Below, in pieces: positions 6,801-60,785 of a stretch of DNA of 64,000 nt (position 1 is the stretch's first letter; each line of letters opens with the position of its first letter). The notes beneath the pieces are model-generated. The model did not search any database, was not told where the DNA came from, and was given only the letters and a program-made list of their open reading frames with translations. The stretch is taken from positions 128,001 through 192,000 of the forward strand of contig CAWIXE010000002.1 of assembly GCA_963840035.1 (NCBI GenBank). Direction: 5' to 3'. Made by a program: the position numbers and the translations under genes. Origin of the DNA: a candidate division FCPU426 bacterium. Lineage in GTDB: Bacteria; Oederibacteriota; PGYV01; Palsa-1178.

Positions 6801-6921
6801 TACGTGGTAAGTGATACGTGGTGTGTGGTAAGTGATATGGTGGGACAAATTGTGGAAGGTGATAGTAGCAAGTGGTATGTGGGAAGTTCACGTATCACAT
6901 AGCACATATCACGCACCACTA
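6801..6921. repeat. Inverted 7-mer tandem arrays (TACGTGR / TCACRYA)
   Basis: tacgtgg-taagtga-tacgtgg-tgtgtgg-taagtga ... tcacgta-tcacata-gcacata-tcacgca. Confidence 0.8.
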
Positions 6922-6938
6922 AATAAAGGAGAAAAACT

Positions 6939-8612
6939 ATGCTGGGTTCCAAAATATTGCTTGAATGCTTGAAAAAGGAAGGCGTGGATACCATATTCGG
7001 ATATCCGGGCGGCGTGGTTCTTCCGCTCTTTGACGCTTTATATGCTGAGAAGGATATCAACCTCGTTCTCGTAAGGCACGAACAGGGCGCGGCGCACATG
7101 GCTGACGGCTACTCGCGCTCCACGGGAAAGACAGGCGTATGCCTGGCAACATCAGGCCCGGGCGCTACAAACTTAGTCACCGGCATTGCGACCGCATACA
7201 TGGATTCCATACCCATGGTCGCCCTCACAGGACAGGTTACGACAAACTTAATCGGCAACGACGCGTTTCAGGAAGTTGACATGACAGGCATCACAAGGCC
7301 TATCGTAAAGCACAACTATATTGTAAAAGACATAAAAGACCTGGCGCAGACCATAAAGAACGCGTTCTACATAGCCTCCACGGGAAAACCCGGGCCGGTT
7401 GTTGTGGACCTTCCCAAGGATATTTTCACGGGCGAAACCGAATACATTTACCCGGCGAAGCCGAACTTACGCGGCTACAAACCCGTATACGATGTCAATA
7501 AAGCGGAGATAAAAAAAGCGGTCGATATGATAGAAAAAGCAAAGAGGCCGCTTTTATACGTGGGCGGCGGAGTGGTGTTATCCGGCGCGACTGAGGAACT
7601 GGCAAAGTTCGTGGAAAAAACCGACATCCCGGTCACCACGACACTGATGGCCATGGATTCCTTTCCGTCAGCGCACCCGCTAAGCTGCGGCATGCTCGGC
7701 ATGCACGGGACAAGGGCCGCGAATTACGCGGTTCAGGAATCAGACCTTTTAATCGCCGTGGGCGCGAGGTTTGACGACAGGGTAACAGGCAAAGTATCTG
7801 AGTTCGCTCCTCACGCGAAGATACTTCACATAGACATAGACCCGGCGTCCATTTCAAAGATAGTGCGCGCGGACCTTCCGGTCGTCGGCGACGCGAAGAA
7901 TATACTGAAAGAGATGACGGTTCAGATAAAAAAGATGGACCATAAGACATGGCACGCGCAGATAGGGCAGTGGAAAAAGGAATTCCCGCTGACATATAAG
8001 GATACGGAGAAAGAGATAAAGCCACAGTACGTCGTGGAAAAGATAGCCGAGCTCACAAAGGGCGAAGCCATCATCGCAACCGAGGTTGGGCAGAACCAGA
8101 TGTGGGCAGCTCAGTTCTCAAAGTTCAAAACGCCGAGGACATTTATTACGTCCGGCGGGTTGGGTACTATGGGATTTGGGCTACCAGCGGCCATAGGAGC
8201 GCAGGCAGGCAACCCGGATAAGCTTGTTATTGACATTGCCGGAGACGGTTCCATTCAGATGAACATCCAGGAACTGGCCACGGCTGTTAAGTATAAATAT
8301 CCGGTAAAGATAGTTATTTTAAATAACGGCTGGCTCGGCATGGTAAGGCAGTGGCAGGAACTTTTCTACGGCAAGCGTTACTCCTCCACGCTTATCGAGC
8401 AGTCTGTTGATTTCGTAAAGCTTGCCGAGGCGTACGGAGCCAAGGGCATGAAGATAGACAAAAAGGGCGATGTTGAAAAAGCCCTGAAGGAAGCCTTTGC
8501 GTATAAGGGCGTGGTTGTTATGGACTTCACGGTATCCAGGGAAGAAAACGTTTTCCCGATGGTCCCGACAGGAGCCGCGCTGCATACGATGATTGACGGA
8601 GGGTTGGCGTAA
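6939..8612 (+). CDS. ilvB: Acetolactate synthase large subunit
   Basis: [23 protein letters not shown]-binding GDGS..MN..NN motif. Confidence 0.97.
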
Positions 8613-8723
8613 TTTAAAATTTGAAATTTGAAATTTTAAATTGAAGGCGAAAGGACAGTTTAAAACGGTTTGAGTTTTGGTTTGAGATATCAATTTCAAA
8701 TTTTAAATTTCAAATCTTAAATT
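8611..8723. repeat. Inverted 7-mer tandem arrays (AATTTGA / AATTTCA)
   Basis: aatttaa-aatttga-aatttga-aatttta ... aatttca-aatttta-aatttca-aatctta. Confidence 0.8.
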
Positions 8724-8736
8724 AAAGGAGCATTTT

Positions 8737-9228
8737 ATGGAGCAAACCAAGATCATAGCGGTAACAGTGGAAAACCAGCCGGGCGTGCTTGCGCGCGCCG
8801 CGGGGCTTTTTTCGGGCAGGGGATTTAATATTTCCAGCCTGGCTGTCGGCGAGACAGAGGACCCGACTACTTCGCGCATGACCATAGTGGCCAGCGGCGA
8901 TGAGCTTGTGCTTGAGCAGATTATGAAGCAGTTAAATAAGCTTATTGATGTCATCAAAGTTGTGGATATGAGCGCCGAGACGCATGTGGAGCGCGAACTC
9001 GCGCTGGTGAAGATAGGCGTGACAAAGAAGAAAACAGAAATGCTGGCCGTGATAAAGGCGTTTAAAGCCAACGTGCTCGACGCGGCAAAAGACGCGTACT
9101 TGGTGGAAGTCACCGGCAGCGACGAGCGGATTAACTCCTTCATCGAGGCAGTAAGCGACTACGGCATTAAGGAAATGGTAAGGACGGGGACGATTGCGAT
9201 GACGCGCAGTAAAAAAGGGAAGAAATAA
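8737..9228 (+). CDS. ilvN: Acetolactate synthase regulatory subunit
   Basis: ACT domain VENQPGVLAR..LFSGRGFNISSL; QLNKLIDV. Confidence 0.96.
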   Translation: MEQTKIIAVTVENQPGVLARAAGLFSGRGFNISSLAVGETEDPTTSRMTIVASGDELVLEQIMKQLNKLIDVIKVVDMSAETHVERELALVKIGVTKKKTEMLAVIKAFKANVLDAAKDAYLVEVTGSDERINSFIEAVSDYGIKEMVRTGTIAMTRSKKGKK

Positions 9229-9321
9229 GCCCAGAGCCCAAAGCTCAAGGGGTGGAAGGGTAATAGTAAAAAAGTTTTAAAAAAATCCGGGCGATGCCCG
9301 AAAATTTGAAAGGAGAAATAA

Positions 9322-10389
<1,068 letters not shown>

Positions 10390-10397
10390 ATGATATA

Positions 10398-10522
10398 GTC
10401 CCAAGACCCAAGCCCCATGACCCAGGTAACTGGGTTATGGGCTTGAGGGCTGGGAAAGGAAGGATATGTGACAGATTCGGATCTGGTTTTGACTTGGGTC
10501 CTGAGTCCTGGGTCATGAGACT
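10398..10522. repeat. Inverted 7-mer tandem arrays (GACCCAR / CYTGGGT)
   Basis: gtcccaa-gacccaa-gccccat-gacccag ... cttgggt-cctgagt-cctgggt-catgaga; same family at 43336-43413. Confidence 0.8.
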
Positions 10523-10541
10523 AACGTAAAGGCGGTGCTTT

Positions 10542-12065
10542 ATGAAAAACGAAAAGATCCTGATATTTGACACGACGCTCCGTGACGGCGAACAGGTTCC
10601 GGGCGCGTCGCTAACAAAGGCAGAAAAACTTGAGATAGCGCTGCAGTTAGAGCGCCTCAATGTTGACATAATAGAGGCGGGATTTCCCTTTTCCTCGCCG
10701 GGCGACCTTATATCCGTAAAAGAGATAAGCAAAGTTGTGAGGAAACCCATAATCGCGGGTTTGTGCCGTTCCGTGAAAAAAGACATTGACGCTTGCGCGG
10801 AAGCGATAAAACCCGCCAAGAGGGGAAGGATACACACATTTATTGGCACGTCCCCGCAGCACGTGAAGTTCATAACAAGGTCGACAAATGAAGAAATTTT
10901 AAAGCGCGCAATAGACGGCGTTAAATACGCGCGTACTTTTTGCGACGATGTGGAGTTCTCGGCTATGGACGCGACCCGCACAAGTTTTGATTACCTCTGC
11001 CAGATAGTAGAAGAGGTAATAAAAGCCGGCGCGACAACAGTCGACATTCCTGATTCGGTAGGTTATACGACCCCGGAAGAATTCGGGGCCATGATAAAGA
11101 AACTGATGAATACCGTCCCGAATATTAACAAAGCTGTCATAGCGGTCCACTGCCATAACGACCTTGGAATGGCGACCGCAAACTCACTGGCCGCTGTTGT
11201 AAACGGCGCGAGACAGGTTGAGTGCACCATTAACGGCCTCGGAGAGAGGGCGGGCAACGCGGCACTTGAGGAAGTTGTTATGGCATTAAAGACCCGCGAG
11301 GACATTTACGGTTTTACGACAGGCATCAAAACAGAGGAAATATACAAGACTTCAAAGATGGTCTCGCGCTTAACCGGAATGCCGGTACAGCCGAATAAGT
11401 CCGTGGTCGGGGCAAACGCCTTCGCGCACGCTTCAGGCATACACCAGGACGCCATACTGAAAAATGAAACGACCTTCGGCATTATGACGCCGAAGTCCAT
11501 AGGCATACCCGGACATGAATTGATCTTAACTTCGCGCTCCGGCAGGCACGCCATAATGCACAGGCTTGCTGATTTAGGCTTTAAGGTAAGCGAGACAGAG
11601 ATGGCAAGCGAGATATACCCGAAGTTCCTCCAGATAGCGGACAAGAAAAAGGAAGTCTTTGACGAGGATTTGACAGCCATGATGGAAGGCCAGGGCAAAA
11701 AAGGCAACGAAACCTTTGTGCTCGAGTCAATTTACTCGGCTACAGGTACTAACATAATCCCGACATCGACAGTGGAGATAAGCAAAGCCGGAAAAAAATC
11801 AGTGGCGGCTTCCACCGGAGACGGCCCTGTGGACGCGACATATAAGGCCATTAACGAGATAGTAAAGGCAGACTTAAAGATTGTTGATTACCAGATAAAG
11901 TCGGTCACAAAAGGCGAGGAAGCCCAGGGCGAAGTAACGATACGCGCTAAAAAAGGCGACAGGGAAGTAACCGCCCGCGGCATCTCAACGGACATAATAG
12001 AGGCCAGCGCGAAGGCATACCTTAATGCGCTTAGTAAATTCGAGAATTATAAAAGCAAAAAATGA
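10542..12065 (+). CDS. leuA: 2-isopropylmalate synthase
   Basis: DTTLRDGEQ, HCHNDLG, GERAGNA, HASGIHQD, C-terminal regulatory domain with GDGPVDA. Confidence 0.96.
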   Translation: MKNEKILIFDTTLRDGEQVPGASLTKAEKLEIALQLERLNVDIIEAGFPFSSPGDLISVKEISKVVRKPIIAGLCRSVKKDIDACAEAIKPAKRGRIHTFIGTSPQHVKFITRSTNEEILKRAIDGVKYARTFCDDVEFSAMDATRTSFDYLCQIVEEVIKAGATTVDIPDSVGYTTPEEFGAMIKKLMNTVPNINKAVIAVHCHNDLGMATANSLAAVVNGARQVECTINGLGERAGNAALEEVVMALKTREDIYGFTTGIKTEEIYKTSKMVSRLTGMPVQPNKSVVGANAFAHASGIHQDAILKNETTFGIMTPKSIGIPGHELILTSRSGRHAIMHRLADLGFKVSETEMASEIYPKFLQIADKKKEVFDEDLTAMMEGQGKKGNETFVLESIYSATGTNIIPTSTVEISKAGKKSVAASTGDGPVDATYKAINEIVKADLKIVDYQIKSVTKGEEAQGEVTIRAKKGDREVTARGISTDIIEASAKAYLNALSKFENYKSKK

Positions 12066-12080
12066 CGTTTGAGGGATAGC

Positions 12081-12223
12081 GAGACAAGAGACTGGAGACA
12101 AGAGTACTTAACTGAGTAAGAACTAGACAAGAGACTGGAGACAAGAGTAAGAATAAAGGCAAGGTGAGGTTTTGTGGGATTTGGGTTGTTTTTTTTACTC
12201 CAGTCTCCTATCTCTTGTCTCTT
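12081..12223. repeat. Inverted 7-mer tandem arrays (GAGACWR / YWGTCTC)
   Basis: gagacaa-gagactg-gagacaa (twice) ... cagtctc-ctatctc-ttgtctc; same family at 16538-16928. Confidence 0.8.
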
Positions 12224-12262
12224 AAACTCTACGCGGTCTAACTAACTTCTGGAGGTTTTATC

Positions 12263-13528
12263 ATGGCAATGAACATAGCAGAAAAGATCCTGGCTTTCAA
12301 GTCAGGCAAAAAACACGTAGAACCCGGCGAGCTTATTATCGCCGATATCGACCTTGTGTTGGCAAACGATATTACCGCCCCTATCGCCATTAAGGAATTC
12401 AAGGCGTCCGGCGCCACAAAGGTTTGGGATAGGACCAAGATAGCGCTTGTGCCCGACCATTTTACGCCGAACAAGGATATCAAATCCGCTGAGCAGGCAA
12501 AGATGCTGCGCGAATTCGCTCATGAGCAGAAGCTCACGCATTACTATGACCAGGGCGAAGTCGGCATAGAGCACGCGCTGCTTCCTGAAAAGGGAGTTGT
12601 CGTGCCCGGAGACCTCGTAATCGGCGCGGACTCGCATACCTGCACATACGGCGCTTTGGGCGCTTTTGCAACGGGCGTGGGTTCCACTGACGCCGCATTC
12701 GGCATGATGACAGGCAAGGCGTGGTTCAAAATACCCGAATCAATCAAGTTTATATATAAAGGAAAGCTTAATAAATGGGTGGGAGCGAAGGACCTGATAC
12801 TTCATACCATCGGCGACATCGGAGTTGACGGCGCGCTGTATAAAGCAATGGAATTCACAGGGCCGGTAATAGACAGGATGTCAATGGACGGAAGGCTTAC
12901 CATGTCAAACATGGCAATTGAAGCCGGCGGAAAAGCAGGGCTTATGAACCCGGATGAAATAACCATGGAGTATGTAAAAGCGCGCGCCGAGCATAAGTGG
13001 AAGATATTTACCTCTGATAAGGACGCCAAATATGAGAAAGTCATTGAGTACGATTGCGCGAAGATTGAACCCATAGTTTCGTGCCCGAGCCTGCCTGAGA
13101 ACACAAAGGCGGTTTCCAAGCTCGGCAAAGTCATGATAGACCAGTCAGTCATCGGTTCATGCACAAACGGCAGGATGGATGATTTAAGGATTACGGCAAA
13201 GATATTCAAAGGCAGGAAGATAAATTCCCGCGTGCGCTGCCTGATATTCCCTGGAACCAGGGACATATACGTGCAGGCCATGAAAGAGGGGCTGGTTGAC
13301 ATATTCATGAAAGCAGGCGCGGTATTTTCAATGCCCACCTGCGGCCCGTGCCTGGGCGGACACATGGGAATCCTGGCAAAAGGCGAAGTGGCCGTGTCCA
13401 CGACAAACAGGAATTTTGTCGGCAGGATGGGACATACCGAAAGCTCGGTATACCTCTCGAGCCCGGCAGTAGCCGCGGCAAGCGCGGTACTGGGGTATAT
13501 AGGAACGCCGGAAGGTTTGAAGAAATAG
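12263..13528 (+). CDS. leuC: 3-isopropylmalate dehydratase large subunit
   Basis: [31 protein letters not shown]. Confidence 0.96.
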
Positions 13529-13613
13529 CCCAGAGCCCATAGCCCAAGTGAGGGCTGAAGGCGGGGTTGTTTTTGATCTTAAAACTTGAGCTTTGAGCTT
13601 TGGGCTCTGAGCT
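13527..13613. repeat. Inverted 7-mer tandem arrays (AGCCCAD / TTTGRGC)
   Basis: agcccag-agcccat-agcccaa ... cttgagc-tttgagc-tttgggc-tctgagc; left-arm-only copies near 9228, 18265 and 59508. Confidence 0.8.
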
Positions 13614-13631
13614 AAATACGGAGGTTTTCTT

Positions 13632-14129
13632 ATGAAGTTCACAGGCAAAGTTTGGCGGTTCGGAAACGACATAGACACTGACCTTATCATACCGGCGAGG
13701 TACTTAAACTCATCCGACCCTGCGGAGCTGGCAAAGCACTGCATGGAAGACGCGGATAAGACCTGGGCGGGAAAAGTGGGCAAAGGCGATATCATAGTCG
13801 CGGGAAAGAATTTCGGATGCGGTTCCTCGCGCGAGCACGCGCCGGTGGCCATTAAAGCCGCAGGGGTATCATGCGTTATCGCGAAGGATTTCGCCAGGAT
13901 ATTTTACAGGAATTCATTCAACATCGGGCTGCCGATATTTGAGTCTGAGGAAGCTTCCCTTAAGATAAAGGAAGGCGACACCGTGGAAATAGACGCTGAC
14001 AAAGGCGTGATAAAGAACATAACCAAAAACGAGACTTATAAAGTAAAGCCAATCCCGCCGTTTATGCAGGAGCTCGTGGAAGCGGGCGGGCTGATCGCGT
14101 ACGGGAAGACTAAGTTTAAAATAAAATAG
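13632..14129 (+). CDS. leuD: 3-isopropylmalate dehydratase small subunit
   Basis: [32 protein letters not shown]. Confidence 0.96.
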
Positions 14130-14133
14130 TACC

Positions 14134-14294
14134 AGCCCAAAGCTCAAAGCCGAGAAAAACCACTTGAGTTTTGGGCTCTGGGCTTTGGGATTGCAGTATA
14201 ACTTTCGTTCTGGGCTTTGGGGTTGCAGTATAACTTTCGTTCTGGGCTTTGGGATTGTCGTATAACTTTCGCTCTGGGCTTTGGGCTCTGGGCT
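14134..14294. repeat. Inverted AGCCCAA-type 7-mer arrays with an internal 3 x 32-bp tandem duplication
   Basis: tctgggctttgggattgcagtataactttcgt repeated at 14177, 14209 and 14241. Confidence 0.85.
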
Positions 14295-14314
14295 AACACA
14301 CTGGAGGTTTTATT

Positions 14315-15382
14315 ATGGGAAAGACCTACAACATCGCGGTAATGGGCGGGGACGGAACAGGCCCGGAAGTAGTGGCGGAAGGCATTAAAGTTTTAAAAGT
14401 CGCGGCTGCAAAGCATAATGTCGGGCTGCATTTTGTGGATTATGACCTCGGAGGCGAGAGGTACATGAAGACCGGGGAAATGGTGCCGGATTCGGTTCTG
14501 GAGGAATTCAAAAAAGCCGACTCCATCTATCTCGGGGCCATAGGCCATCCGGACGTAAAACCGGGCATCCTGGAGCTGGGCATTCTTTTAAAGATCCGTT
14601 TTGCCCTGGACCAGTACATCAATTTAAGGCCGGTAAAACTTTATCCTAACGTGGAAACCCCGCTTAAGGACAAAGGGCCGGAACACATAGAGTTTGTGGT
14701 AATCAGGGAAAATTCAGGCGGCATATACACGGGCATGGGCGGAGTGGTAAAAAAAGGCACGCCGAACGAAATCGCCACCCAGACCATGGTATATTCGCGC
14801 TTTGAAGTGGACAGGTGCATAAAGTACGCTTATGAACTTACGCGCAAAAGGAATAAAAAGAATATGTTAACGCTCGTGCATAAATGCAACGTATTAACGC
14901 ACACCGGAGACCTCTGGGTCAGGGCGCATAAGGAAATGGGAGACAAACACTTCCCGGACATAAAACAGGATTACGCGCACGTGGACGCCACGACAATGTG
15001 GTTTGTGAAGAACCCGGAATTCTTTGACGTTATCGTCACAGAGAACCTCTTCGGCGATATCATCACCGATTTGGGCGCCATGATACAGGGCGGCATGGGA
15101 ATAGCGGCCGGAGGAAACATCAACCCGGAAGGCGTATCCATGTTCGAACCCATCGGCGGCTCGGCCCCGAAGTACACAGGCAAAAACGTCATTAACCCGC
15201 TCGCAGCAATCAACGCCGCGGCCATGATGATGGATACTATGGGCGAGGACAAACTTGCAAAGTCCATAGATAACGCAGTAACAGCAGCGCTGTCTACCGG
15301 AAAGATACCATCCATGTCGGCAGGCAAGATGGGAATGGGGACGAGGGAACTTGGGGATTTTGTGGCGGGGTTTGTAAAGTAA
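14315..15382 (+). CDS. leuB: 3-isopropylmalate dehydrogenase
   Basis: GDGTGPEV, NLRPVKL, NLFGDIITDLGA, FEPIGGSAP; operon context. Confidence 0.93.
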   Translation: MGKTYNIAVMGGDGTGPEVVAEGIKVLKVAAAKHNVGLHFVDYDLGGERYMKTGEMVPDSVLEEFKKADSIYLGAIGHPDVKPGILELGILLKIRFALDQYINLRPVKLYPNVETPLKDKGPEHIEFVVIRENSGGIYTGMGGVVKKGTPNEIATQTMVYSRFEVDRCIKYAYELTRKRNKKNMLTLVHKCNVLTHTGDLWVRAHKEMGDKHFPDIKQDYAHVDATTMWFVKNPEFFDVIVTENLFGDIITDLGAMIQGGMGIAAGGNINPEGVSMFEPIGGSAPKYTGKNVINPLAAINAAAMMMDTMGEDKLAKSIDNAVTAALSTGKIPSMSAGKMGMGTRELGDFVAGFVK

Positions 15383-15392
15383 TATGTAATTA

Positions 15393-15455
15393 AGATAGTA
15401 GATTTTAGATTGCGGATTAATAGTCTATTAATCAACAATCTACTATCAACAATCT
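15393..15455. repeat. Inverted 7-mer tandem arrays (AGATWnn / ACAATCT)
   Basis: agatagt-agatttt-agattgc-ggattaa ... ttaatca-acaatct-actatca-acaatct. Confidence 0.7.
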
Positions 15456-15503
15456 TCAATAATATGGAACACACTATATGAAGAAAGGGTAAGGTAAACA
15501 AAC

Positions 15504-16523
15504 ATGAGCAAGGAATACAACGTAGCGATTATGGGCGCGACGGGCGCCGTGGGAAAGGAACTGCTTTCGATAGTCGAGGAGCGGAAGTTTCCGATAAAGA
15601 ACCTGAAACTCCTGGCTTCCGAGAGGTCAGTGGGTAAAAAGATGAAGTACCAGGGCAGGAACCTGACTGTCGAGCTCCTGGACTCAAATTCGTTTAAAGG
15701 CGTGGACATAGTCCTGGCGTCAGCCGGAGCTTCCTTATCCAAGCAGTACCTTAAGGATATGGCCGACGCAAAAGCGCTGTGCATAGACAATACGTCCGCT
15801 TTCAGGATGGAAAAGGACGTTCCGCTCGTTGTCCCGGAGATAAACCCCGAGGACTGCCGCTGGAACACGGGCGTGATAGCCAACCCGAACTGCACGACCA
15901 TCATAGCCATAGTGCCGTTAAAACCCATACATGACGCCGCGAAGATTAAGAGGATGGTGATTTCCTCATACCAGGCTTCTTCAGGCGCGGGCGACAAGGC
16001 CATGTTTGAAGTACAGCAGCAGGCAAAGGACTGGGCAGCGGGCAAGCAGTTAAAGGTCGAAAAATTCGCGTACCAGCTCCTGTGGAACGTGATACCGCAT
16101 ATTGACGCCTTTACGGATAACGGTTATACAAAAGAAGAACTCAAGGTATTAAACGAGACCAGAAAAATTATGCACGAGCCTGAGATGATGATATCTTGCA
16201 CGTGCGTCAGGGTGCCGGTATTACGCGCGCATTCAGAGTCCATAATGATAGAGACCGAGAAAAAATTATCGGTTAAAGAGATCCAGGACCTGATGAAGAA
16301 TGCCCCCGGAGTGACGCTTGAGGACGATCCGGCAAACAAGAAATACCCCATGCCGCTTTTTGTCTCAGGCAAGGATAACGTCTCCGTAGGCCGCATAAGG
16401 GAGGACATCTCCTGCTCAGGAAACGGATATAACCTGTGGGTGGTAGGAGACCAGATAAGAAAAGGCGCCGCTTTAAATGCCGTGCAGATAGCCGAGATTG
16501 TTGCAAAAGAAGGATTGAAGTAA
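15504..16523 (+). CDS. asd: Aspartate-semialdehyde dehydrogenase
   Basis: GATGAVG, IANPNCTT, CVRVPVLRAHS, DQIRKGAALNAVQIAE. Confidence 0.98.
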   Translation: MSKEYNVAIMGATGAVGKELLSIVEERKFPIKNLKLLASERSVGKKMKYQGRNLTVELLDSNSFKGVDIVLASAGASLSKQYLKDMADAKALCIDNTSAFRMEKDVPLVVPEINPEDCRWNTGVIANPNCTTIIAIVPLKPIHDAAKIKRMVISSYQASSGAGDKAMFEVQQQAKDWAAGKQLKVEKFAYQLLWNVIPHIDAFTDNGYTKEELKVLNETRKIMHEPEMMISCTCVRVPVLRAHSESIMIETEKKLSVKEIQDLMKNAPGVTLEDDPANKKYPMPLFVSGKDNVSVGRIREDISCSGNGYNLWVVGDQIRKGAALNAVQIAEIVAKEGLK

Positions 16524-16592
16524 ACGTTTGATGTAGAGAGACAAGAGACTGGAGACTGGAGTAAGTCGACAGTCTTAAGTCTGGAAAATACG

Positions 16593-16620
16593 GGCCGGAG
16601 AGAAATCTCCGGCCTTTTTT
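16593..16620 (+). terminator. Intrinsic terminator of the ilv-leu-asd cluster
   Basis: ggccggaga-gaaa-tctccggcc followed by tttttt. Confidence 0.9.
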
Positions 16621-16648
16621 ATTTGTATTGTCAATATTTACAAACCCT

Positions 16649-16784
16649 GTAGGGGAGGACCTGTGTGTCCGCCAGTAAGGTTGGGTTCCGTTTTTTATCC
16701 CTCTCCCCCCGGGAGAGGGTAGGGTGAGGGGACATTAAAGGCAAGGTTCACCTCACCCCAGCCCCTCTCCTAAGAGGAGAGGGG
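16649..16784. repeat. GTAG REP plus CCCTCTCCC-type palindrome doublet
   Basis: gtaggggaggacctgtgtgtccgcc; ccctctccccccgggagagggtagggtgagggg ... cctcaccccagcccctctcctaagaggagagggg. Confidence 0.75.
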
Positions 16785-16965
16785 AGGAAATAACTGCCGT
16801 TCGGGCTAATACAATCTATTTCTTAAAGACAAACCGTCTTACTTGTAGTATAATGTCCTTCGCTTCAGATTTTACCGGTTTTGCTGTTTAAGGGACCCTA
16901 AACTCTTGTCTCCAGTCTCTTGTCTCTTAAACTCATGCCAGGTATATATAACGGGGAGGTTTACT

Positions 16966-18258
16966 ATGATTAAACGCTACACACTCGAAAAAATGGGCGC
17001 GCTATGGACGGAAGAAGCTAAGTTTCAGTCATGGCTTGACGTGGAAGTGGCTGTATGCGAGGCATGGGCTAAAAAGGGCAAGATACCAAAGAAAGACATG
17101 GCAGTCATAAAGAAAAAAGCCGGTTTCAACATAGATGAAATAGATAAAATAGAACTCAGGACACGCCATGACCTTATCGCTTTTACTGAATCCGTAGCCA
17201 ACCATGTAGGGCCTGCCTCAAGGTATATCCATATGGGAATTACTTCATCTGATGTTGTGGATACCGGGTTTGCTTTAAGGCTGGTAAAGGGATGCGATAT
17301 TGTTTTAGCGGATATGAAAATACTGGTAGCCACCCTCAAAAAACTCGCGACAAAACACAAATACACCGTCCAGATAGGCCGCACACATAATGTGCACGCC
17401 GAACCCATAACATTCGGGCTTAAGGTGCTTGTATGGCATTTTGAAATGAAGAGAAGCATTGAACGGTTAAAAGCGGCGAAAGAGGATATCAGGGTAGGAA
17501 AGCTTTCAGGCGCGGTCGGCAACTACGCGAACATACCGCCGGATGTTGAGAAGATAGCCATGACAAAACTTGGCCTGAAAAGGGCTGAGATTGCCAACCA
17601 GGTAATACAGAGGGACAGATACGCGTATTTAATGACAGTAATGGCTGTTGCCGCAGGCTCGATTGAAAAAATTGCCACCGAGATCAGGAACCTGCAGCAT
17701 ACAGAGATACTTGAAGTTGAAGAACCCTTCGCAAAGGGCCAGAAAGGCTCCTCTGCCATGCCGCATAAGAGGAACCCGGTGGTCTGCGAGCAGATAACAG
17801 GTTTGGCCAGGGTTATAAGGTCAAATTCCATATCATCGCTCGAAAATATAGCCCTATGGCATGAGAGGGACATATCCCACTCTTCAGTGGAGAGGATTAC
17901 GGTACCTGACACATTCATTCTCCTTCATTATATAATCAACAAGATGAACTGGGTTATGGACGGACTGCAGGTATACCCGTCAAACATGAAGCGCAACCTG
18001 CATTACCTGAAGGGCGCTATATTCTCCCAGAGGCTCCTGCTTGCGCTTGTCCAGAAGGGCCTGACAAGGGAAAAGTCGTATGAAATAGTGCAGGACAACG
18101 CCATGAGGGTATGGAGAGGCGAATCCCCGGACTTCATAACGTCGCTGCTCGCTGACCCGGATGTTAAAAAGAACTTTGAAGCCAAGGAACTCGACGGCAT
18201 ATTTGACGTGAATTACTACCTGAAATACGTGGATGAGTTCTTCCGCAGGGCAAAATAA
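16966..18258 (+). CDS. purB: Adenylosuccinate lyase
   Basis: GGAGG RBS before ATG 16966 (MIKRY); GRTH, GSSAMPHKRNP, WHERDISHSS. Confidence 0.97.
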   Translation: MIKRYTLEKMGALWTEEAKFQSWLDVEVAVCEAWAKKGKIPKKDMAVIKKKAGFNIDEIDKIELRTRHDLIAFTESVANHVGPASRYIHMGITSSDVVDTGFALRLVKGCDIVLADMKILVATLKKLATKHKYTVQIGRTHNVHAEPITFGLKVLVWHFEMKRSIERLKAAKEDIRVGKLSGAVGNYANIPPDVEKIAMTKLGLKRAEIANQVIQRDRYAYLMTVMAVAAGSIEKIATEIRNLQHTEILEVEEPFAKGQKGSSAMPHKRNPVVCEQITGLARVIRSNSISSLENIALWHERDISHSSVERITVPDTFILLHYIINKMNWVMDGLQVYPSNMKRNLHYLKGAIFSQRLLLALVQKGLTREKSYEIVQDNAMRVWRGESPDFITSLLADPDVKKNFEAKELDGIFDVNYYLKYVDEFFRRAK

Positions 18259-18297
18259 GATACAAAGCCCAGAGCCCAAAGCTCAGGGAAACATTGG

Positions 18298-29877: not shown

Positions 29878-32898
<3,021 letters not shown>

Positions 32899-33095
32899 CT
32901 TAAATATAAGGATCCTGCGGATAGAATCCGCAGGGTACCTTATGAAATAATAAGTGCAAGACGCTTATGTAACAAGAAATACCGACGAAATGTATTATCC
33001 TGCTGATAGCTGTATAAAAACGACTCAAGAGAATTGAGGTCGTAACAATAGACACCGTTCCCGGTGCAAACCGGGCGACGTTTGTCGAAGATATG

Positions 33096-41435: not shown

Positions 41436-41458
41436 AAACGGATTCCAGATTCTGGATT

Positions 41459-42516
41459 CTTGAATTCAAGGTAAAAGTGCAACACTTCTGTTAAAATCTT
41501 TATGTCGAGTAAAGAATACAGAAGGAGGTTGCACCAATGAAATTATACAAGCATTTAGGCATAGAAGAAAGAGCAAAAATTGTTATTTTACAGGACCAAG
41601 GGTTCACAGTTGGTGAAATAGCAGCTGAGCTTGGAAGACACAGATCCACGATACACAGAGAAATAACTAGGAACAGCAACATAGAAACCGGAGAATATGT
41701 TGCTAGAGATGCAAACACATCATACAGACGAAGATTAAGTGTCCCCCAGGGCAGAATAAGGGATACAGCAATAAAGTCGTATGTGATAGATAAACTTAAA
41801 AACGGTTGGTCTCCTGAAAGAATTTCAGGAAGGATAGCGGAAGAACTACCGGGAAAAAGTATTAGTACTGAAACAATATACATGTTTGTATATAAAGAAG
41901 AGCCGGGATTTAGAGGATGTTTAACTAGGCACCACATGAAAAGGCACTTAAAAGGTCAGAGAAAGACGCATACAAAAGGTCGTATACCCAATAAAACATC
42001 AATAGAATTAAGGCCTAAACAAATAGACGAACGTAAACAGGTCGGGCATTGGGAAAGCGACACAATGGCTGGATTACAAAAGAAAAATTCAGGACTAACC
42101 TTTACAGTGGAAAGAAAAACACGGTTAACGAAGATATATAAGTTAAGAGTAATAACCGCAAGGCATAACAGAAGAAACATAATGAAATCATTACGAAGTG
42201 TGCCTGAAGGCGTTCGGTTAAGCATAACTTATGACAACGGAAAAGAAAATGTTGAGCACGAAAAGATTAATAAACAGATAGGGTGTAAATCATACTTTTG
42301 CCATGAAAAAAGTCCCTATGAAAAAGGCACGGTTGAGAACACAATAGGATTGGCGAGAAGGATATACCCAAAAGGCACAGACTTTGATATGATAAGCTCC
42401 GGCAGGATAAAAGAACTTGAAAATTGGCTGAATAATTTACCAAGGAAATGTTTGGGCTGGAAAACTCCAAACGAAGCATTTAACAAGATGTGTTGCACTT
42501 AAACATTGAATGTAGC
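41459..42516 (+). mobile_element. IS30-family element with 26-bp imperfect IRs and a 3-bp ATT target duplication
   Basis: Left IR cttgaattcaaggtaaaagtgcaaca; right IR (reverse complement) gctacattcaatgtttaagtgcaaca; ATT at 41456-41458 and 42517-42519. Confidence 0.9.
41537..42502 (+). CDS. IS30-family transposase
   Basis: HTH LGRHRSTIHREITRN; GHWESDT, TYDNGKE, EKGTVEN, NNLPRKCLGWKTP. Confidence 0.96.
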   Translation: MKLYKHLGIEERAKIVILQDQGFTVGEIAAELGRHRSTIHREITRNSNIETGEYVARDANTSYRRRLSVPQGRIRDTAIKSYVIDKLKNGWSPERISGRIAEELPGKSISTETIYMFVYKEEPGFRGCLTRHHMKRHLKGQRKTHTKGRIPNKTSIELRPKQIDERKQVGHWESDTMAGLQKKNSGLTFTVERKTRLTKIYKLRVITARHNRRNIMKSLRSVPEGVRLSITYDNGKENVEHEKINKQIGCKSYFCHEKSPYEKGTVENTIGLARRIYPKGTDFDMISSGRIKELENWLNNLPRKCLGWKTPNEAFNKMCCT

Positions 42517-42550
42517 ATTCTAAATTTTGAATTAAAACGAAAAGCATATA

Positions 42551-42595: not shown

Positions 42596-43336
42596 GTGAA
42601 AAAGTTTGCTGGGCAGGCTGTTTTGGCGGCGGTTTTAGTCGCTGTTTCAGCGCTGATTTTTTACTTCCATTACAGAGTGTACCATGACAAGAAGTTTGTC
42701 ATAGACTGGCTTATCGGGTCGCTGGCGTTTTTGCCTATTTCAGTGCTTGTGGTATCACTCATACTAGAGCGCATCATTAGCGGCAGGGAAAAGGCGGCGC
42801 TGCTGGCAAAGCTTAACATGGTAATAGGCGCGTTTTTTAGCGAGGCAGGGGGCGGGCTTTTGTTCATGCTTGAAAAACACGCCAATGTCTCCTCTGAAAT
42901 AAAGGAAAGCCTGCTTATAAACGGCAAGTGGCTAAAAAAGGATTTTATCGCGGCTGAAAAGAAACTCCGCGGGTACTTTTATGGATTTGACACCAGGGGC
43001 ATGGACTTAAAGGCGATAAGGGATTTTTTGACATCCAAAAGGGAATTTCTGCTCCGGCTTCTGGAAAATCAGAACCTTCTGGAACATGAGACTTTTACCG
43101 ACCTTTTATGGGCGGTTTTCCACGTGACAGAAGAGCTCGAATCAAGGAAAAACCTGAAAAAGCTTTCACAGGGCGACCTTGCCCATATATCCGGAGACAT
43201 ACAAAGGGCTTATGTGCTTTTGGTGGCGGAGTGGATCGGTTACATGTCACACTTAAAGACGCAGTACCCGTACCTTTTTTCGCTGGCCGTAAGAAAGAAC
43301 CCGTTTGACAGCAAGGCGAAGGCGGAGATACAGTAG
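42596..43336 (+). CDS. Conserved-looking hypothetical membrane protein
   Basis: AAGGAG RBS then GTG; two N-terminal TM helices; KLNMVIGAFFSE, LLEHETFTDLLWAVFH. Confidence 0.8.
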   Translation: MKKFAGQAVLAAVLVAVSALIFYFHYRVYHDKKFVIDWLIGSLAFLPISVLVVSLILERIISGREKAALLAKLNMVIGAFFSEAGGGLLFMLEKHANVSSEIKESLLINGKWLKKDFIAAEKKLRGYFYGFDTRGMDLKAIRDFLTSKREFLLRLLENQNLLEHETFTDLLWAVFHVTEELESRKNLKKLSQGDLAHISGDIQRAYVLLVAEWIGYMSHLKTQYPYLFSLAVRKNPFDSKAKAEIQ

Positions 43337-43427
43337 TCGCAAGACCCAAGACCCATTACCCAGGTCCAGAACTGTTGTTTTTGACTTGAGTCATGGGGCC
43401 TGGGTCATGGGACAAAAGGAGAATGTT

Positions 43428-57608: not shown

Positions 57609-59501
57609 ATGTTTTTACCTACTACCAAAGAAGAAATGCAAAAGCTTGGATGGGAACGGTGTGATGTTATACTTGTCACCGGGGATGCTTATATAGACAG
57701 CCCTTACGTTGGCGTGGCTGTTATCGGGCATGTTCTTATGGACGCGGGATATAAGGTGGGGATTATTGCGCAGCCTTCTTTAGCCCAAAGCCAAGAGCCC
57801 AAAGCCCAAGGAAATTCTACGTCTTCCCCTGAGCTTTGGGCTATGGGCTCTGGTATTAACGACATTTCCCGCCTTGGCGAGCCCCGCCTTTTCTGGGGTG
57901 TTTCAGGTGGTTGTGTCGACTCTATGGTTTCAAACTATACCGCGCTTAAAAAGCCGCGGCGTTCTGATGACTTTACTCCGGGCGGGGAAAACACCAAGCG
58001 GCCTGACAGGGCTGTGATTACTTACTCAAACCTTATACGGCGCTGTTTTAAGAATACGGTGCCAATCGTTTTAGGCGGCATTGAAGCTTCGCTCCGGCGC
58101 ATGGTTCACTATGATTACTGGCAGGACGGGTTGCGCAAATCAATTTTATTTGATGCCAAGGCTGACGTGCTAGTATATGGGATGGGCGAGCGGGCGGTCG
58201 TGGAGATTGCAAACGCTTTATCAGGGCGTTCGGAGGGTGGAGTTCGGAGTTCGGAGTTCAAACAGAACAGGTCGAACTTCGAACCCCGAACCCCGAACTC
58301 CGAACTGAATTCGCCGGACTTCGAACCCCGTGCTGATGTTAACAAGTTTCAGTTAATCAAAGGTATCTGTTACATCAGTAAAACCACAGTGCCCGGATAC
58401 ATAGAACTGCCGTCTTTTGATGAAGTGATTAAAGACAAAGCCAAGTTTATGGAATCATTCAAAACCTTCTACGACAACAACGACCCCGGCATTTCAAAAG
58501 GGCTCATGCAAAAGCAGGACACCCGTTACCTCATACAAAACCCTCCGCAGCCTGTGCTCACCGAAGCGGAACTCGATAAGGTTTATGAGCTTCCTTTTGA
58601 ATACGAGGCCCACCCTTATTACGCGGACATGGGGCGGATAAAGGCGCAGGATACAATAAAGTTTTCCATAAACACCCACCGCGGGTGTTTTGGCGAGTGC
58701 AACTTCTGCGCCATCACAACGCACCAGGGCAGGATAGTCACGAGCAGGAGCGCGCAATCTGTTATCCGCGAGGCTGAGCGGATTACGCATCTGCCCGGAT
58801 TCAAAGGATACATATACGACGCCGGCGGCCCCACCGCGAACATGTACCGTATGGGCTGTTCAAAGATTAAGAACGGGCACTGCAGGAACAAGCGCTGCGT
58901 CTTTCCGGAAATCTGCGATGACCTTGATTTCAGCCATAAGCCCCAGATGGTTTTGCTGGAGACTTTAAGGCGGGTAAAAGGTATCAAAAAGATATTCATC
59001 GGTTCGGGGCTGAGGTACGACATGATTACCGCGGATGAAAAGTACGGGGACGACTATATAAAAATGCTTGTTGAGCACCACATATCAGGGCAGATAAAGC
59101 TGGCGCCTGAGCACTCTGAGGCAGAGGTGCTCCGGCTCATGGGAAAGCCCGGGGTTGAGTCATTAAAGGCATTTAAGGACAGGTACTTCATTATAAATAA
59201 GGAAACAGGGAACAAACAATTTCTGACCTACTATATTATAGCGGCGCATCCCGGGTGCGAGGAAAAGGACATGCATAAGTTGAAGATGTACTTAAATGAG
59301 GAACTTCAGGCAAATCCTGAGCAGGTGCAGGTATTTACCCCTACGCCGGGGACGTGGTCCGGGGTCATGTATTATACGGAAACAGACCCTTTTACAGGGA
59401 AACATGTATTTGTTGAAAAGACGCATAAGGGCAAGGAGCGGCAAAAAGAGGTAATAACGGGGAAAACAGTGGATAATAGGAAGGGTTGGAAGGGGAAGTA
59501 A
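57609..59501 (+). CDS. YgiQ/UPF0313 radical SAM protein with two in-frame repeat insertions
   Basis: MFLPTTKEE, TGDAYID.P, GGIEASLRR..HYD, CFGECNFC, APEH, QVQVFTPTP. Confidence 0.93.
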   Translation: MFLPTTKEEMQKLGWERCDVILVTGDAYIDSPYVGVAVIGHVLMDAGYKVGIIAQPSLAQSQEPKAQGNSTSSPELWAMGSGINDISRLGEPRLFWGVSGGCVDSMVSNYTALKKPRRSDDFTPGGENTKRPDRAVITYSNLIRRCFKNTVPIVLGGIEASLRRMVHYDYWQDGLRKSILFDAKADVLVYGMGERAVVEIANALSGRSEGGVRSSEFKQNRSNFEPRTPNSELNSPDFEPRADVNKFQLIKGICYISKTTVPGYIELPSFDEVIKDKAKFMESFKTFYDNNDPGISKGLMQKQDTRYLIQNPPQPVLTEAELDKVYELPFEYEAHPYYADMGRIKAQDTIKFSINTHRGCFGECNFCAITTHQGRIVTSRSAQSVIREAERITHLPGFKGYIYDAGGPTANMYRMGCSKIKNGHCRNKRCVFPEICDDLDFSHKPQMVLLETLRRVKGIKKIFIGSGLRYDMITADEKYGDDYIKMLVEHHISGQIKLAPEHSEAEVLRLMGKPGVESLKAFKDRYFIINKETGNKQFLTYYIIAAHPGCEEKDMHKLKMYLNEELQANPEQVQVFTPTPGTWSGVMYYTETDPFTGKHVFVEKTHKGKERQKEVITGKTVDNRKGWKGK

Positions 59502-59585
59502 ATTCATAGCCCAGAGCCCAAAGCTCAAGTGTAAAAAGACAATATAACGCAACCTTTTAACGGCAAAACAGTTATATATATAAGG

Positions 59586-60785
59586 TAAAAAGTGTAAGAT
59601 GAAAAACCCCACATAGAAAAAGAAAAAGTCCCAACAGAACAACTGATGGTATTATGTAAGTGCGACCAAACATAAACCAAAGGAGCTGGACTGATGGGAC
59701 AAGTAAATAGTACCACAAGAACGTATTTAAGGGAAAGCGAAAGATACAAGATTGAGGCTTTACGGCAGAAGAAATTAACAGGTCGCGAGATAGGCCGTTT
59801 GTTGGGTAGAAATCACAGGACGATAAACAGAGAGATAAAAAGAGGCACGATTGAGCTGTTGAATAGTGATTTAACAACCCGGAAGGTATATAAAGCGCAC
59901 ATAGGCCAGGAAATACATGATGAAAAGTCAAAGCACAAAGGACCAGGATTAAAGATAGGCAGCGACCACAAACTGGCTGAATACATAGAACTAACCATAA
60001 AGAAAGACCGATACTCTCCGGCCGCGGTTGCAGCAACAATCAAGAACAAAGAACAGAAATTTACTGTGACTTTAAGTGCAAAAACCATTTATAACTATAT
60101 AGGCAAAGAAGTTTTTTATGGCATAAGCAATGAGGATTTATGGATGAAACGCAAAAGGAAAAACAAGAACAAAAGAGTGCGTGTTTTCGATAAGAACAGA
60201 CTTTGCAAGAGCATAGAAGACAGACCAAAAGAGGCCAATGAAAGATCTGAATACGGTCACTGGGAAATCGATTGCGTCAAAGGAAAGCAAGGGGATAAAG
60301 AATGTTTGTTGACGTTGAGTGAAAGGAAGACAAGAAAGGAAATAATTGAGAAAATGAAGTCAGCCTCAAATGAAGAAGTCGACAGAGTTCTGACGAAGTT
60401 GGAACAGAAATACAAAGAAAATTTTAAGGATATTTTTAAGAGTATCACGGCAGATAATGGCTCGGAGTTCTTGAACTGGGAGTTTTTAGAAGCCAGCAAA
60501 GTATTTAATGGACAAAAAAGGACAAATATATATTTTGCTCACCCTTATTGTTCCTGTGAAAGAGGTACAAACGAGAACTCAAACAGGATGATAAGACGGT
60601 TTATACCCAAGGGAACCAGCATAGGCCCTATAAGCAATAAGGAAATCAAGAAAATAGAGACATGGATGAACAATTACCCCAGAAAGGTAATTGGATACGA
60701 AACTGCGACACAAATGACAAATCAAATCTTTACAAGAAAAATGCCTCAGTTGGTTGGGGTGGGGTTTTAATTGTTGCAACTTACG
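59586..60785 (+). mobile_element. Second IS30-family element with long (15-17 bp) flanking direct repeats
   Basis: Imperfect IRs ending aaaaccccac / gtggggtttt; gttatatatataaggta at 59571-59587 and 60786-60802. Confidence 0.85.
59694..60770 (+). CDS. IS30-family transposase
   Basis: LGRNHRTINREIKRG, GHWEIDCV, TADNGSEF, ERGTNEN.N, NNYPRK. Confidence 0.96.
   Translation: MGQVNSTTRTYLRESERYKIEALRQKKLTGREIGRLLGRNHRTINREIKRGTIELLNSDLTTRKVYKAHIGQEIHDEKSKHKGPGLKIGSDHKLAEYIELTIKKDRYSPAAVAATIKNKEQKFTVTLSAKTIYNYIGKEVFYGISNEDLWMKRKRKNKNKRVRVFDKNRLCKSIEDRPKEANERSEYGHWEIDCVKGKQGDKECLLTLSERKTRKEIIEKMKSASNEEVDRVLTKLEQKYKENFKDIFKSITADNGSEFLNWEFLEASKVFNGQKRTNIYFAHPYCSCERGTNENSNRMIRRFIPKGTSIGPISNKEIKKIETWMNNYPRKVIGYETATQMTNQIFTRKMPQLVGVGF

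Follow-up and report, generated by a model that had tools for sequence, protein, structure and literature searches.

The 64,000-nucleotide (nt) window analysed in this study (C2:128001-192000) belongs to the genome of a candidate division FCPU426 bacterium (G000; 3.46 Mb in three contigs, C1-C3, 98% complete, 47-48% G+C). In its gene cluster ilvD-ilvB-ilvN-ilvC-leuA-leuC-leuD-leuB-asd-purB, the gaps between genes hold tandem arrays of 7-nt units (heptamers), many of them paired as inward-facing arms. On balance, our analysis favours the view that these arrays are gene-less copies of the 30-35-base arms of cassettes encoding a four-helix-bundle protein (TIGR02436), and that they spread as neutral passengers by short templated replacement, involving one arm or both. 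The observations that carry this view are the modular arms of 4-5 units, their link to the cassettes, the lineage-specific turnover of unit families, the length-neutral occupancy of host sequences and the absence of target duplication.

Heptamer arms and four-helix-bundle cassettes

The genome contains 593 arrays of period 7, compared with 11 after local shuffling. Arrays of periods 5, 8, 10 and 11 number 10-20 each; the 153 and 335 arrays of periods 6 and 12 likely reflect codon periodicity, and the 474 of period 14 are a harmonic. With the threshold relaxed, intergenic arrays make up 935 of 1066. When gaps of at least 40 nt were counted on the basis of our own simple gene predictor, arrays were present in 544 of the 1606 co-directional, 48 of the 134 convergent and 41 of the 161 divergent gaps. 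Inverted pairs total 290, and 222 of them lie within 100 nt of each other, as opposed to 13 direct pairs, the arms facing inward. As the first, sequence-only reading of the window had expected, the arms pair better than shuffled sequences: the folding z-score was below -2 in 57 of 60 elements sampled genome-wide and ranged from -2.5 to -4.5 in seven of eight window gaps, the exception being the solo arm at 9228 (z, -1.2).

Approximately 20 unit families, to which we gave the working labels A-U, cover 762 of the 790 arrays in co-directional gaps. In each family the arm is a defined module of 28-35 nt whose variant units are position-specific, and left and right arms are alike. Among the 492 arms of 246 paired elements, 393 consist of 4-5 units and 20 are longer, and the stems are 86% Watson-Crick (5102 of 5901 pairs). 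No identical whole elements were found, and 14 of the 165 loops of at least 20 nt have a partner. No target-site duplication was detected at the 246 elements, where the longest flanking direct repeats equal the shuffled expectation (element ends being stem-defined and approximate). A left arm resembles its own right arm about as closely as it resembles other members of its family in family A (0.74 and 0.73) and family I (0.69 and 0.69); the own-pair excess is larger in families B, K and H, own pairs having been selected for score. Solo arms are common, with 128 of left type and 61 of right type, and the lagging-strand cases (3 and 5) are too few to split transcription from replication. A reading of the arrays as polar with transcription was dropped, because an inverted repeat reads alike from either strand.

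The genome contains seven matches to PF05635 over the cut-off. Three TIGR02436 genes lie between heptamer arms, namely C2:519685 (family K, the type found at window position 6801), C1:780720 (family U, the type found at 8611) and C1:786256 (family F), and a fourth PF05635 gene is flanked by longer composite repeats. The sequence-only reading had mentioned that TIGR02436 genes often have such flanks, and this link holds, both for the intact genes between 6801-type and 8611-type arms, two of the six window families, and in other phyla, where inverted heptamer arms surround 56 of 78 homologues and none of 70 leuC control loci. For this comparison, 79 homologous loci were collected, of which 78 had enough flank, and 71 of 80 leuC loci were obtained, of which 70 were usable; a locus counted as positive if an array on one side of the gene had an inverted partner on the other. 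The proposal of a dedicated process that spreads the arrays is supported.

The cassette at C2:519685 occupies the whole pyrC-carA gap, 544 nt in length. In the 11 relatives, among 21 examined, with an identifiable upstream pyrC, this gap measures 13-47 nt and has no arms. A joint across this cassette in the contigs of a sequencing run used for comparison (X1) was not used, because other X1 pieces cover the leader and the trailer of the cassette; it may stem from another family K copy. The cassette protein matches the five-chain structures 2GSC and 2RLD in the Protein Data Bank, the former being called a homopentamer in a passage of PMC4990558. Its match to the model of Avd, the accessory protein of diversity-generating retroelements, is weak (E 1.7e-4, below the cut-off). 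To our knowledge, the TIGR02436 protein has a solved structure and no known function, and the four-helix-bundle cassette protein has no known catalytic activity. No GxxExxY nuclease partner was found in G000. Array load correlates with the number of four-helix-bundle genes (rho 0.68; 21 genomes, hand-taken counts), which is not independent evidence because the genomes are kin.

Immediately downstream of tRNA genes lie three related four-helix-bundle genes (C2:73372, C3:492511 and C2:1127107), which are not enclosed by a matching pair of arms. A variant ribosome-binding sequence, ATAG-purine-GGGG, precedes four of the seven four-helix-bundle genes as well as several small genes resembling RAYT (REP-associated tyrosine transposase, REP being repetitive extragenic palindrome), toxin-antitoxin and RadC genes; overall, it is present at 26 of 2943 predicted genes.

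Family turnover and arms within host sequences

Comparison with the genomes of relatives (G001 onwards), the closest of which are approximately 85% identical to G000 in protein, showed that the ilv-leu gaps of 20 relatives are mostly short and empty, with no detected array in 12 of the 20. The leuC-leuD gap contains an array in 8 of 21 genomes, and these eight have eight different consensus units. One X1 contig of depth 3, which matches 441 nt of leuD at 96% identity, carries a different element of 27 nt where G000 has the 85-nt hairpin (13529-13613). Because this 27-nt element resembles the sequence of G005 and G008 at the same site, the hairpin appears to have replaced an older sequence rather than landed beside it. 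Several relatives have a related hairpin in the ilvC-leuA gap, a site that is therefore probably old. Since the gaps of relatives are empty or hold different families, the arrays do not constitute an ilv-leu regulator and are most likely passengers in this operon.

In-frame arms were found in approximately 20 genes, including intact housekeeping genes, and nine of these genes were checked against orthologues. A YgiQ-family radical SAM gene in the window contains two hairpins; among 12 orthologues, the same two loops hold arms of other families in G001, G008, G011 and G014, a decayed form in G002 and no arm in G003, G005, G007, G012, G016 and G019. The arms in ispG and ksgA are length-neutral relative to all relatives compared (five and nine, respectively), and that in trmD is length-neutral relative to two of four relatives and adds 6 nt relative to the other two. 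The lipA gene of G001 contains a family C arm and is equal in length to those of four arm-free relatives. In iorA, a loop of identical length in G000, G002, G006 and G004 holds three different right-type arms, in register, in the first three genomes and none in G004. Of ten coding arms tested, six have an intergenic counterpart that matches at 91-94% over 31-36 nt, the flanks being part of the match; for the leuS arm the match is 88% over 42 nt. Because single arms stand in for host DNA at unchanged length in several genes, templated overwriting is likelier than cut-and-paste insertion, although the relatives are distant and the evidence for overwriting is for that reason suggestive rather than proven.

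Arms were also found at the two ends of host sequences. The pair at 16538 and 16906 in the asd-purB gap encloses a terminator-like hairpin and a promoter-like motif that are common to armless relatives. In the groEL-dnaJ gap, the terminator and motif between the arms are retained in G002 and G006, where other families occupy the stop-side or the start-side slot, and the pair at C1:1005462 likewise surrounds an ancestral host promoter or terminator. Of 143 gaps, 124 have outer arms of one and the same family; among the 16 with arms at least 80 nt apart, 13 do, against 15% expected by chance. The nrdJ gene and the mannose-1-phosphate guanylyltransferase cluster, which are neighbours in several relatives, are far apart in G000 (C3:255925 and C1:1005462) and have family A arms at both ends; this split possibly represents an arm-mediated rearrangement.

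Arrays of the window

The arrays that the sequence-only reading had listed are all present at the positions given. Its observation that heptamers occupy the gaps of the ilv-leu-asd-purB region holds, as 10 of 10 gaps from ilvD to purB contain an array and this is the longest run of array-holding gaps in the whole genome; the arrays are, however, not specific to the operon but genome-wide. It had not included the two in-frame hairpins of the YgiQ-family gene and the arm at 41441 that is broken by an IS30 element. The features are given below; the right ends of 12081..12229 and 15394..15460 and a few ends of nested features were read by eye and are approximate.

6801..6919, plus strand: paired arms of family K (GTGRTAN units; arms 6801-6842 and 6888-6919), ilvD-ilvB gap
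8611..8723, plus strand: paired arms of family U (AAATTTG-type; arms 8611-8644 and 8690-8723), ilvB-ilvN gap
9228..9248, plus strand: solo left arm of family D (AGCCCAR), overlapping the ilvN stop codon
10398..10521, plus strand: paired arms of family I (GACCCAR; arms 10398-10425 and 10494-10521), ilvC-leuA gap
12081..12229, plus strand: two left arms of family C (GAGACWR) with a single right arm (12201-12221), leuA-leuC gap
13527..13613, plus strand: paired arms of family D (arms 13527-13547 and 13586-13613), leuC-leuD gap
14134..14294, plus strand: family D, left arm at 14134 and two right arms at 14171 and 14274, leuD-leuB gap
15394..15460, plus strand: paired arms of family J (GATWGYR; right arm about 15427-15460), leuB-asd gap
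16538..16934, plus strand: asd-purB gap, a family C arm at each end (16538-16558 and 16906-16926), with about 340 nt between them
16592..16620 (approximate), plus strand: terminator-like hairpin within the asd-purB arms, with a similar hairpin in armless G003, G005 and G007
16648..16813 (approximate), no strand assigned: nested non-heptamer palindromes within the asd-purB arms, a REP pair around a G+C-rich hairpin pair
16824..16854 (approximate), plus strand: purB promoter-like motif within the arms, common to G002, G003, G004, G005 and G007
18266..18286, plus strand: solo left arm of family D between purB and a terminator-like hairpin
41441..41454, plus strand: left arm of family H broken by an IS30 element (transposase 41537-42502)
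43336..43413, plus strand: paired arms of family I (arms 43336-43356 and 43386-43413), beginning at a stop codon upstream of an RluA-family gene
57787..57854, plus strand: family D hairpin, in frame in the YgiQ-family radical SAM gene
58232..58308, plus strand: family F (GTTCGGR) hairpin, in frame in the same YgiQ-family gene
59508..59528, plus strand: solo left arm of family D after the YgiQ-family gene

As in the cassettes, the window arrays have inward-facing arms that are predicted to fold into 25-35-bp stems. No match to PF05635 and no remnant of a four-helix-bundle gene was found in the window, where no such open reading frame (ORF) lies between the arms, and none of the eight PF05635 matches lies inside the 23S rRNA gene of the window (29878-32899). 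The suggestion that the arrays are scars of small mobile genes is only partly right: the window holds no four-helix-bundle remnant, the loops are mostly unique, and solo arms are also present in coding DNA, some of them length-neutral. The candidate interpretation of every gene as a cassette enclosed by matching arms failed in the window, where leuD alone fits.

Several other elements accompany the arms. At 14171-14294, a 28-nt unit is repeated three times in tandem, each copy with a piece of a family D right arm, which lengthens the leuD-leuB gap. The outer pair of the nested palindromes at 16648-16813 we take to be REPs of the GTAG type, and similar nesting is seen at C1:1005462, C1:672963 and C3:90420; GTAG-type REPs also flank RAYT-like genes in the genome. 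Another loop type, in which an A+T palindrome sits between two small hairpins, is found within arms of several different families (C1:775826, C1:780255, C1:689105, C3:38657, C3:39168 and about nine more sites) and may be a separate nested element. Two groups of IS30 elements appear to target arms. In one group, all three copies lie at inner ends of family B arms; in the group represented in the window, two of the five copies lie in family H arms; the copies in question are those at window positions 41441-42520 and at C2:388182, C2:827355, C3:55017 and C3:228353. A further IS30-family element (59694-60770), with a 15-nt direct repeat on both sides and several identical copies elsewhere, follows shortly after the solo arm at 59508.

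A search of the window against Rfam yielded only rRNA and tRNA, and a search of a phage collection with the leuA-leuC gap yielded no match. A metagenome scan based on leuC returned one close locus only (L038), and a look-up of sequencing runs returned one DNA run, with a small share, and no RNA run.

Possible routes of spread and known systems

If the arms spread by templated replacement, a donor arm would pair with a short look-alike seed, which could be an older arm or a few bases near a stop codon, and host repair would then fix the arm in place. Uptake of one end would leave a solo arm, uptake of both ends alone would leave arms around host DNA, and uptake of both ends with the interior would give an empty hairpin or a full cassette. 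The position between the stop codon and the ribosome-binding site is likely a product of survival in tight gaps. More speculatively, the pentameric four-helix-bundle protein may bind approximately five units of an arm and promote the exchange. A bolder version, which we put forward only tentatively, is an arm-writing system free of reverse transcriptase, in which the four-helix-bundle pentamer would recognize its own five-heptamer arm, drive in-register overwriting of about 30 bases at short seeds, swap families, rewrite codons of essential genes at constant protein length and occasionally carry its own gene.

Several findings weigh against templated replacement. No enzyme for the catalytic step was found: the reverse transcriptase domain PF00078 has no match in G000 or in any of seven family-level relatives, and the reverse transcriptase domains of six relatives, used as queries, gave one weak match (E 0.009), which falls within a radical-SAM-like gene unrelated to them. 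Of the approximately 20 families, K, U and F alone have a cognate four-helix-bundle gene in the genome, and the three genes that follow tRNA genes lack an enclosing pair of matching arms. G012, G017, G022 and G023 possess 3-6 four-helix-bundle genes each, yet have no array in nine ilv-leu gaps. The cassettes of other phyla are looser than those of G000, with 4-5 units in 60 of 98 arms. Within genes, plain net insertions were found in lipA (+36 nt), murF (+42 nt), a glycosyltransferase gene (+48 and +21 nt) and pyrK (up to +12 nt), and the arms of ksgA and pyk match intergenic arms weakly (scores 18 and 20). Since the closest genomes are only ~85% identical in protein, insertion followed by a compensating deletion is a possible route to the length-neutral cases. 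Finally, two full hairpins, or a hairpin and a right arm, surround a host promoter at C3:255925, C3:404846 and C1:1008321, so that double insertion and later erosion could also have left host DNA between arms; the terminator enclosed at C1:1008321 is not ancestral.

These intermediates are what would be expected if REPIN-like hairpins (REP doublets forming hairpins) or MITEs (miniature transposable elements with inverted repeats) had been moved as blocks by a transposase acting in trans, such as a Y1/RAYT enzyme, the solo, promoter-spanning and length-neutral arms having arisen by later erosion and compensating deletions. We regard this as a possible but distinctly less probable explanation. 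Block copying does happen: five family S copies, three sense and two antisense, have one common asymmetric loop, whose presence in both orientations points to DNA-level events, and the full cassette in the pyrC-carA gap is itself a block insertion. Same-family neighbours are also enriched at distances below 2 kb (16 of 70, against ~10%), and the genome has eight matches to Y1 enzymes, which leave no target duplication. However, the eight Y1 loci have REP-type palindromes of their own or none, with no heptamer arms seen by eye in 260 nt of flank; there are no identical copies, and most loops are unique; the exact length neutrality at ispG, ksgA and iorA would require two balanced events in each gene; and arms are targets of IS30 insertion and are not carried by the IS30 copies.

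That no dedicated system exists, and that polymerase slippage and template switching at local seeds produce arrays which four-helix-bundle genes merely tolerate or favour as flanks, seems improbable. Such a process would explain the pure expansions of a single unit (about 50 copies at one locus), the frequent similarity, judged by eye, of the ancestral sequence to the inner end of the new arm and the local clustering of same-family arrays (110 of 608 neighbouring arrays, 81 ± 7 expected; weak, at 38 of 278 with 28 ± 5 expected, once AT-rich families are removed). It does not account for approximately 20 families with fixed length, defined ends and position-specific variant units, for coding arms that copy distant intergenic arms with their flanks, for the 222 to 13 excess of inward-facing over direct pairs or for the association with one gene family across many phyla. 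The idea that the arrays are mRNA hairpins under selection for their effect on processing and stoichiometry of the ilv-leu-asd-purB transcript, also raised in the sequence-only reading, fares slightly worse still, and we consider it very unlikely. The 25-35 bp stems are computed to fold stably, this operon is the densest run in the genome, a gene for RNase III is present, and in the 23S rRNA of Coxiella, according to a passage of PMC4990558, RNase III cuts a 28-bp heptamer-bearing stem around a homologous gene; putative RNase III cleavage of the stems is possible as a side effect. Nevertheless, the orthologous gaps are mostly short, empty or occupied by other families, and the same elements are present in about one-third of all gaps, convergent and divergent ones included, and in coding loops. 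The excess of G-U over A-C mispairs is weak (195 and 155, with 449 other mismatches; p 0.04) and could stem from leading-strand mutation bias. The sense strand is the better-folding one in 135 of 200 elements, but armless gaps show the same in 313 of 443 cases. In the asd-purB gap, a terminator and a promoter separate the two arms.

Arrays of this kind belong to a known but unexplained class of repeats. The short tandemly repeated repetitive (STRR) heptamers of cyanobacteria are tandem 7-nt repeats. Diversity-generating retroelements employ Avd and a reverse transcriptase for the length-neutral templated replacement of a short target, a likeness that extends to the weak Avd match of the cassette protein; here, no reverse transcriptase was found and there are hundreds of targets. 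In one relative, a reverse transcriptase adjoins a weak PF05635 match (L341, G020:C181:1840-2915), which is likely a true Avd-reverse transcriptase pair of such a retroelement. Rickettsia palindromic elements are selfish palindromic repeats translated in frame in housekeeping proteins and thus resemble the in-frame copies within intact housekeeping genes, but they are longer, conserved block insertions, whereas 30-nt solo arms are common here and some replace host codons. MITEs have terminal inverted repeats, as do the elements described here (arms of 28-35 nt, alike on both sides), which differ in lacking target-site duplication and, except for the five-copy family S, near-identical copies with a common interior. 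REPINs, as defined in a passage of Bertels and Rainey 2011 (PMC3116915), are similar in their inverted doublets, variable spacers, many singlets, hundreds of intergenic copies and a small cognate gene flanked by the repeat. REPs differ: they are short palindromes with a tag, their copies are nearly identical and their HUH enzyme is known, whereas the arms are tandem heptamers. The heptamer arms do not flank a RAYT gene at the eight Y1 loci.

Among published heptamers, the intervening sequence of Coxiella, as a passage of PMC4990558 describes it, contains an S23p gene between inverted repeats with tandem heptamers, forms a 28-bp stem and is excised by RNase III. Such ORF-bearing 23S rRNA intervening sequences (S23p/PF05635/TIGR02436) have the same protein family between inverted repeats as the cassettes of G000, which differ, together with hundreds of empty arms, in lying between or inside protein genes, with none in the 23S gene of the window. 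In Xanthomonas, convergent GGGAATC pairs are reported at 70-75 per genome, intergenic, mostly of four units and near stop or start codons (passages of Rehm et al. 2015, PMC4692102); like the arrays here they are abundant, mainly intergenic inverted pairs of tandem 7-nt units, but they comprise one unit family, as opposed to approximately 20, and are discussed as G-quadruplexes. The main text of that paper does not contain the words 'helix bundle', 'S23', 'XCC0516' or 'transposase'. In Geobacter metallireducens, paired 'global regulator binding sites' and four-heptamer elements are described, with pairs on opposite strands at variable distance and some copies inside genes (passages of Aklujkar et al. 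2009, PMC2700814). They resemble the arms in their opposite-strand pairs, 3-5 tandem units, in-gene copies and neighbouring insertion sequences, and differ in being read as IHF/HU-type binding sites, no cassette gene or replacement being named in these passages or in the supplement legends. The P6b stem of the Nostoc trnL intron has complementary 7-nt repeats with repeated shifts between two classes and an origin given as unknown (passages of Kaasalainen et al. 2015, PMC4476775); one repeat class replaces the other at the same site, as in the turnover observed here, but this concerns two classes at one RNA site, whereas family replacement in G000 is genome-wide and extends into protein genes. 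Direct TAACTGA repeats are described in a passage of MacGregor 2015 (PMC4679880). In the literature covered, which included few subscription journals, no paper was found that connects heptamer arms scattered through a genome with TIGR02436 genes, or that reports overwriting of coding sequence at constant length. The arrays represent a new variant within this class, inverted heptamer pairs having already been published for Xanthomonas and Geobacter, and the new part is the suggestive evidence for overwriting.

Heptamer arrays are over-represented in many bacterial genomes, and the genome analysed here ties them to the TIGR02436 protein. The replacement of host DNA by arms in register, often without length change or target duplication, provides a clue to the mechanism. 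If templated replacement is indeed how the arms propagate, it would represent a selfish spread unlike transposition that edits housekeeping proteins. If, in addition, an arm-writing system of the kind outlined above exists, one mechanism would account for ORF-bearing rRNA intervening sequences, the STRR and P6b repeats of cyanobacteria and the heptamer pairs of Xanthomonas and Geobacter.

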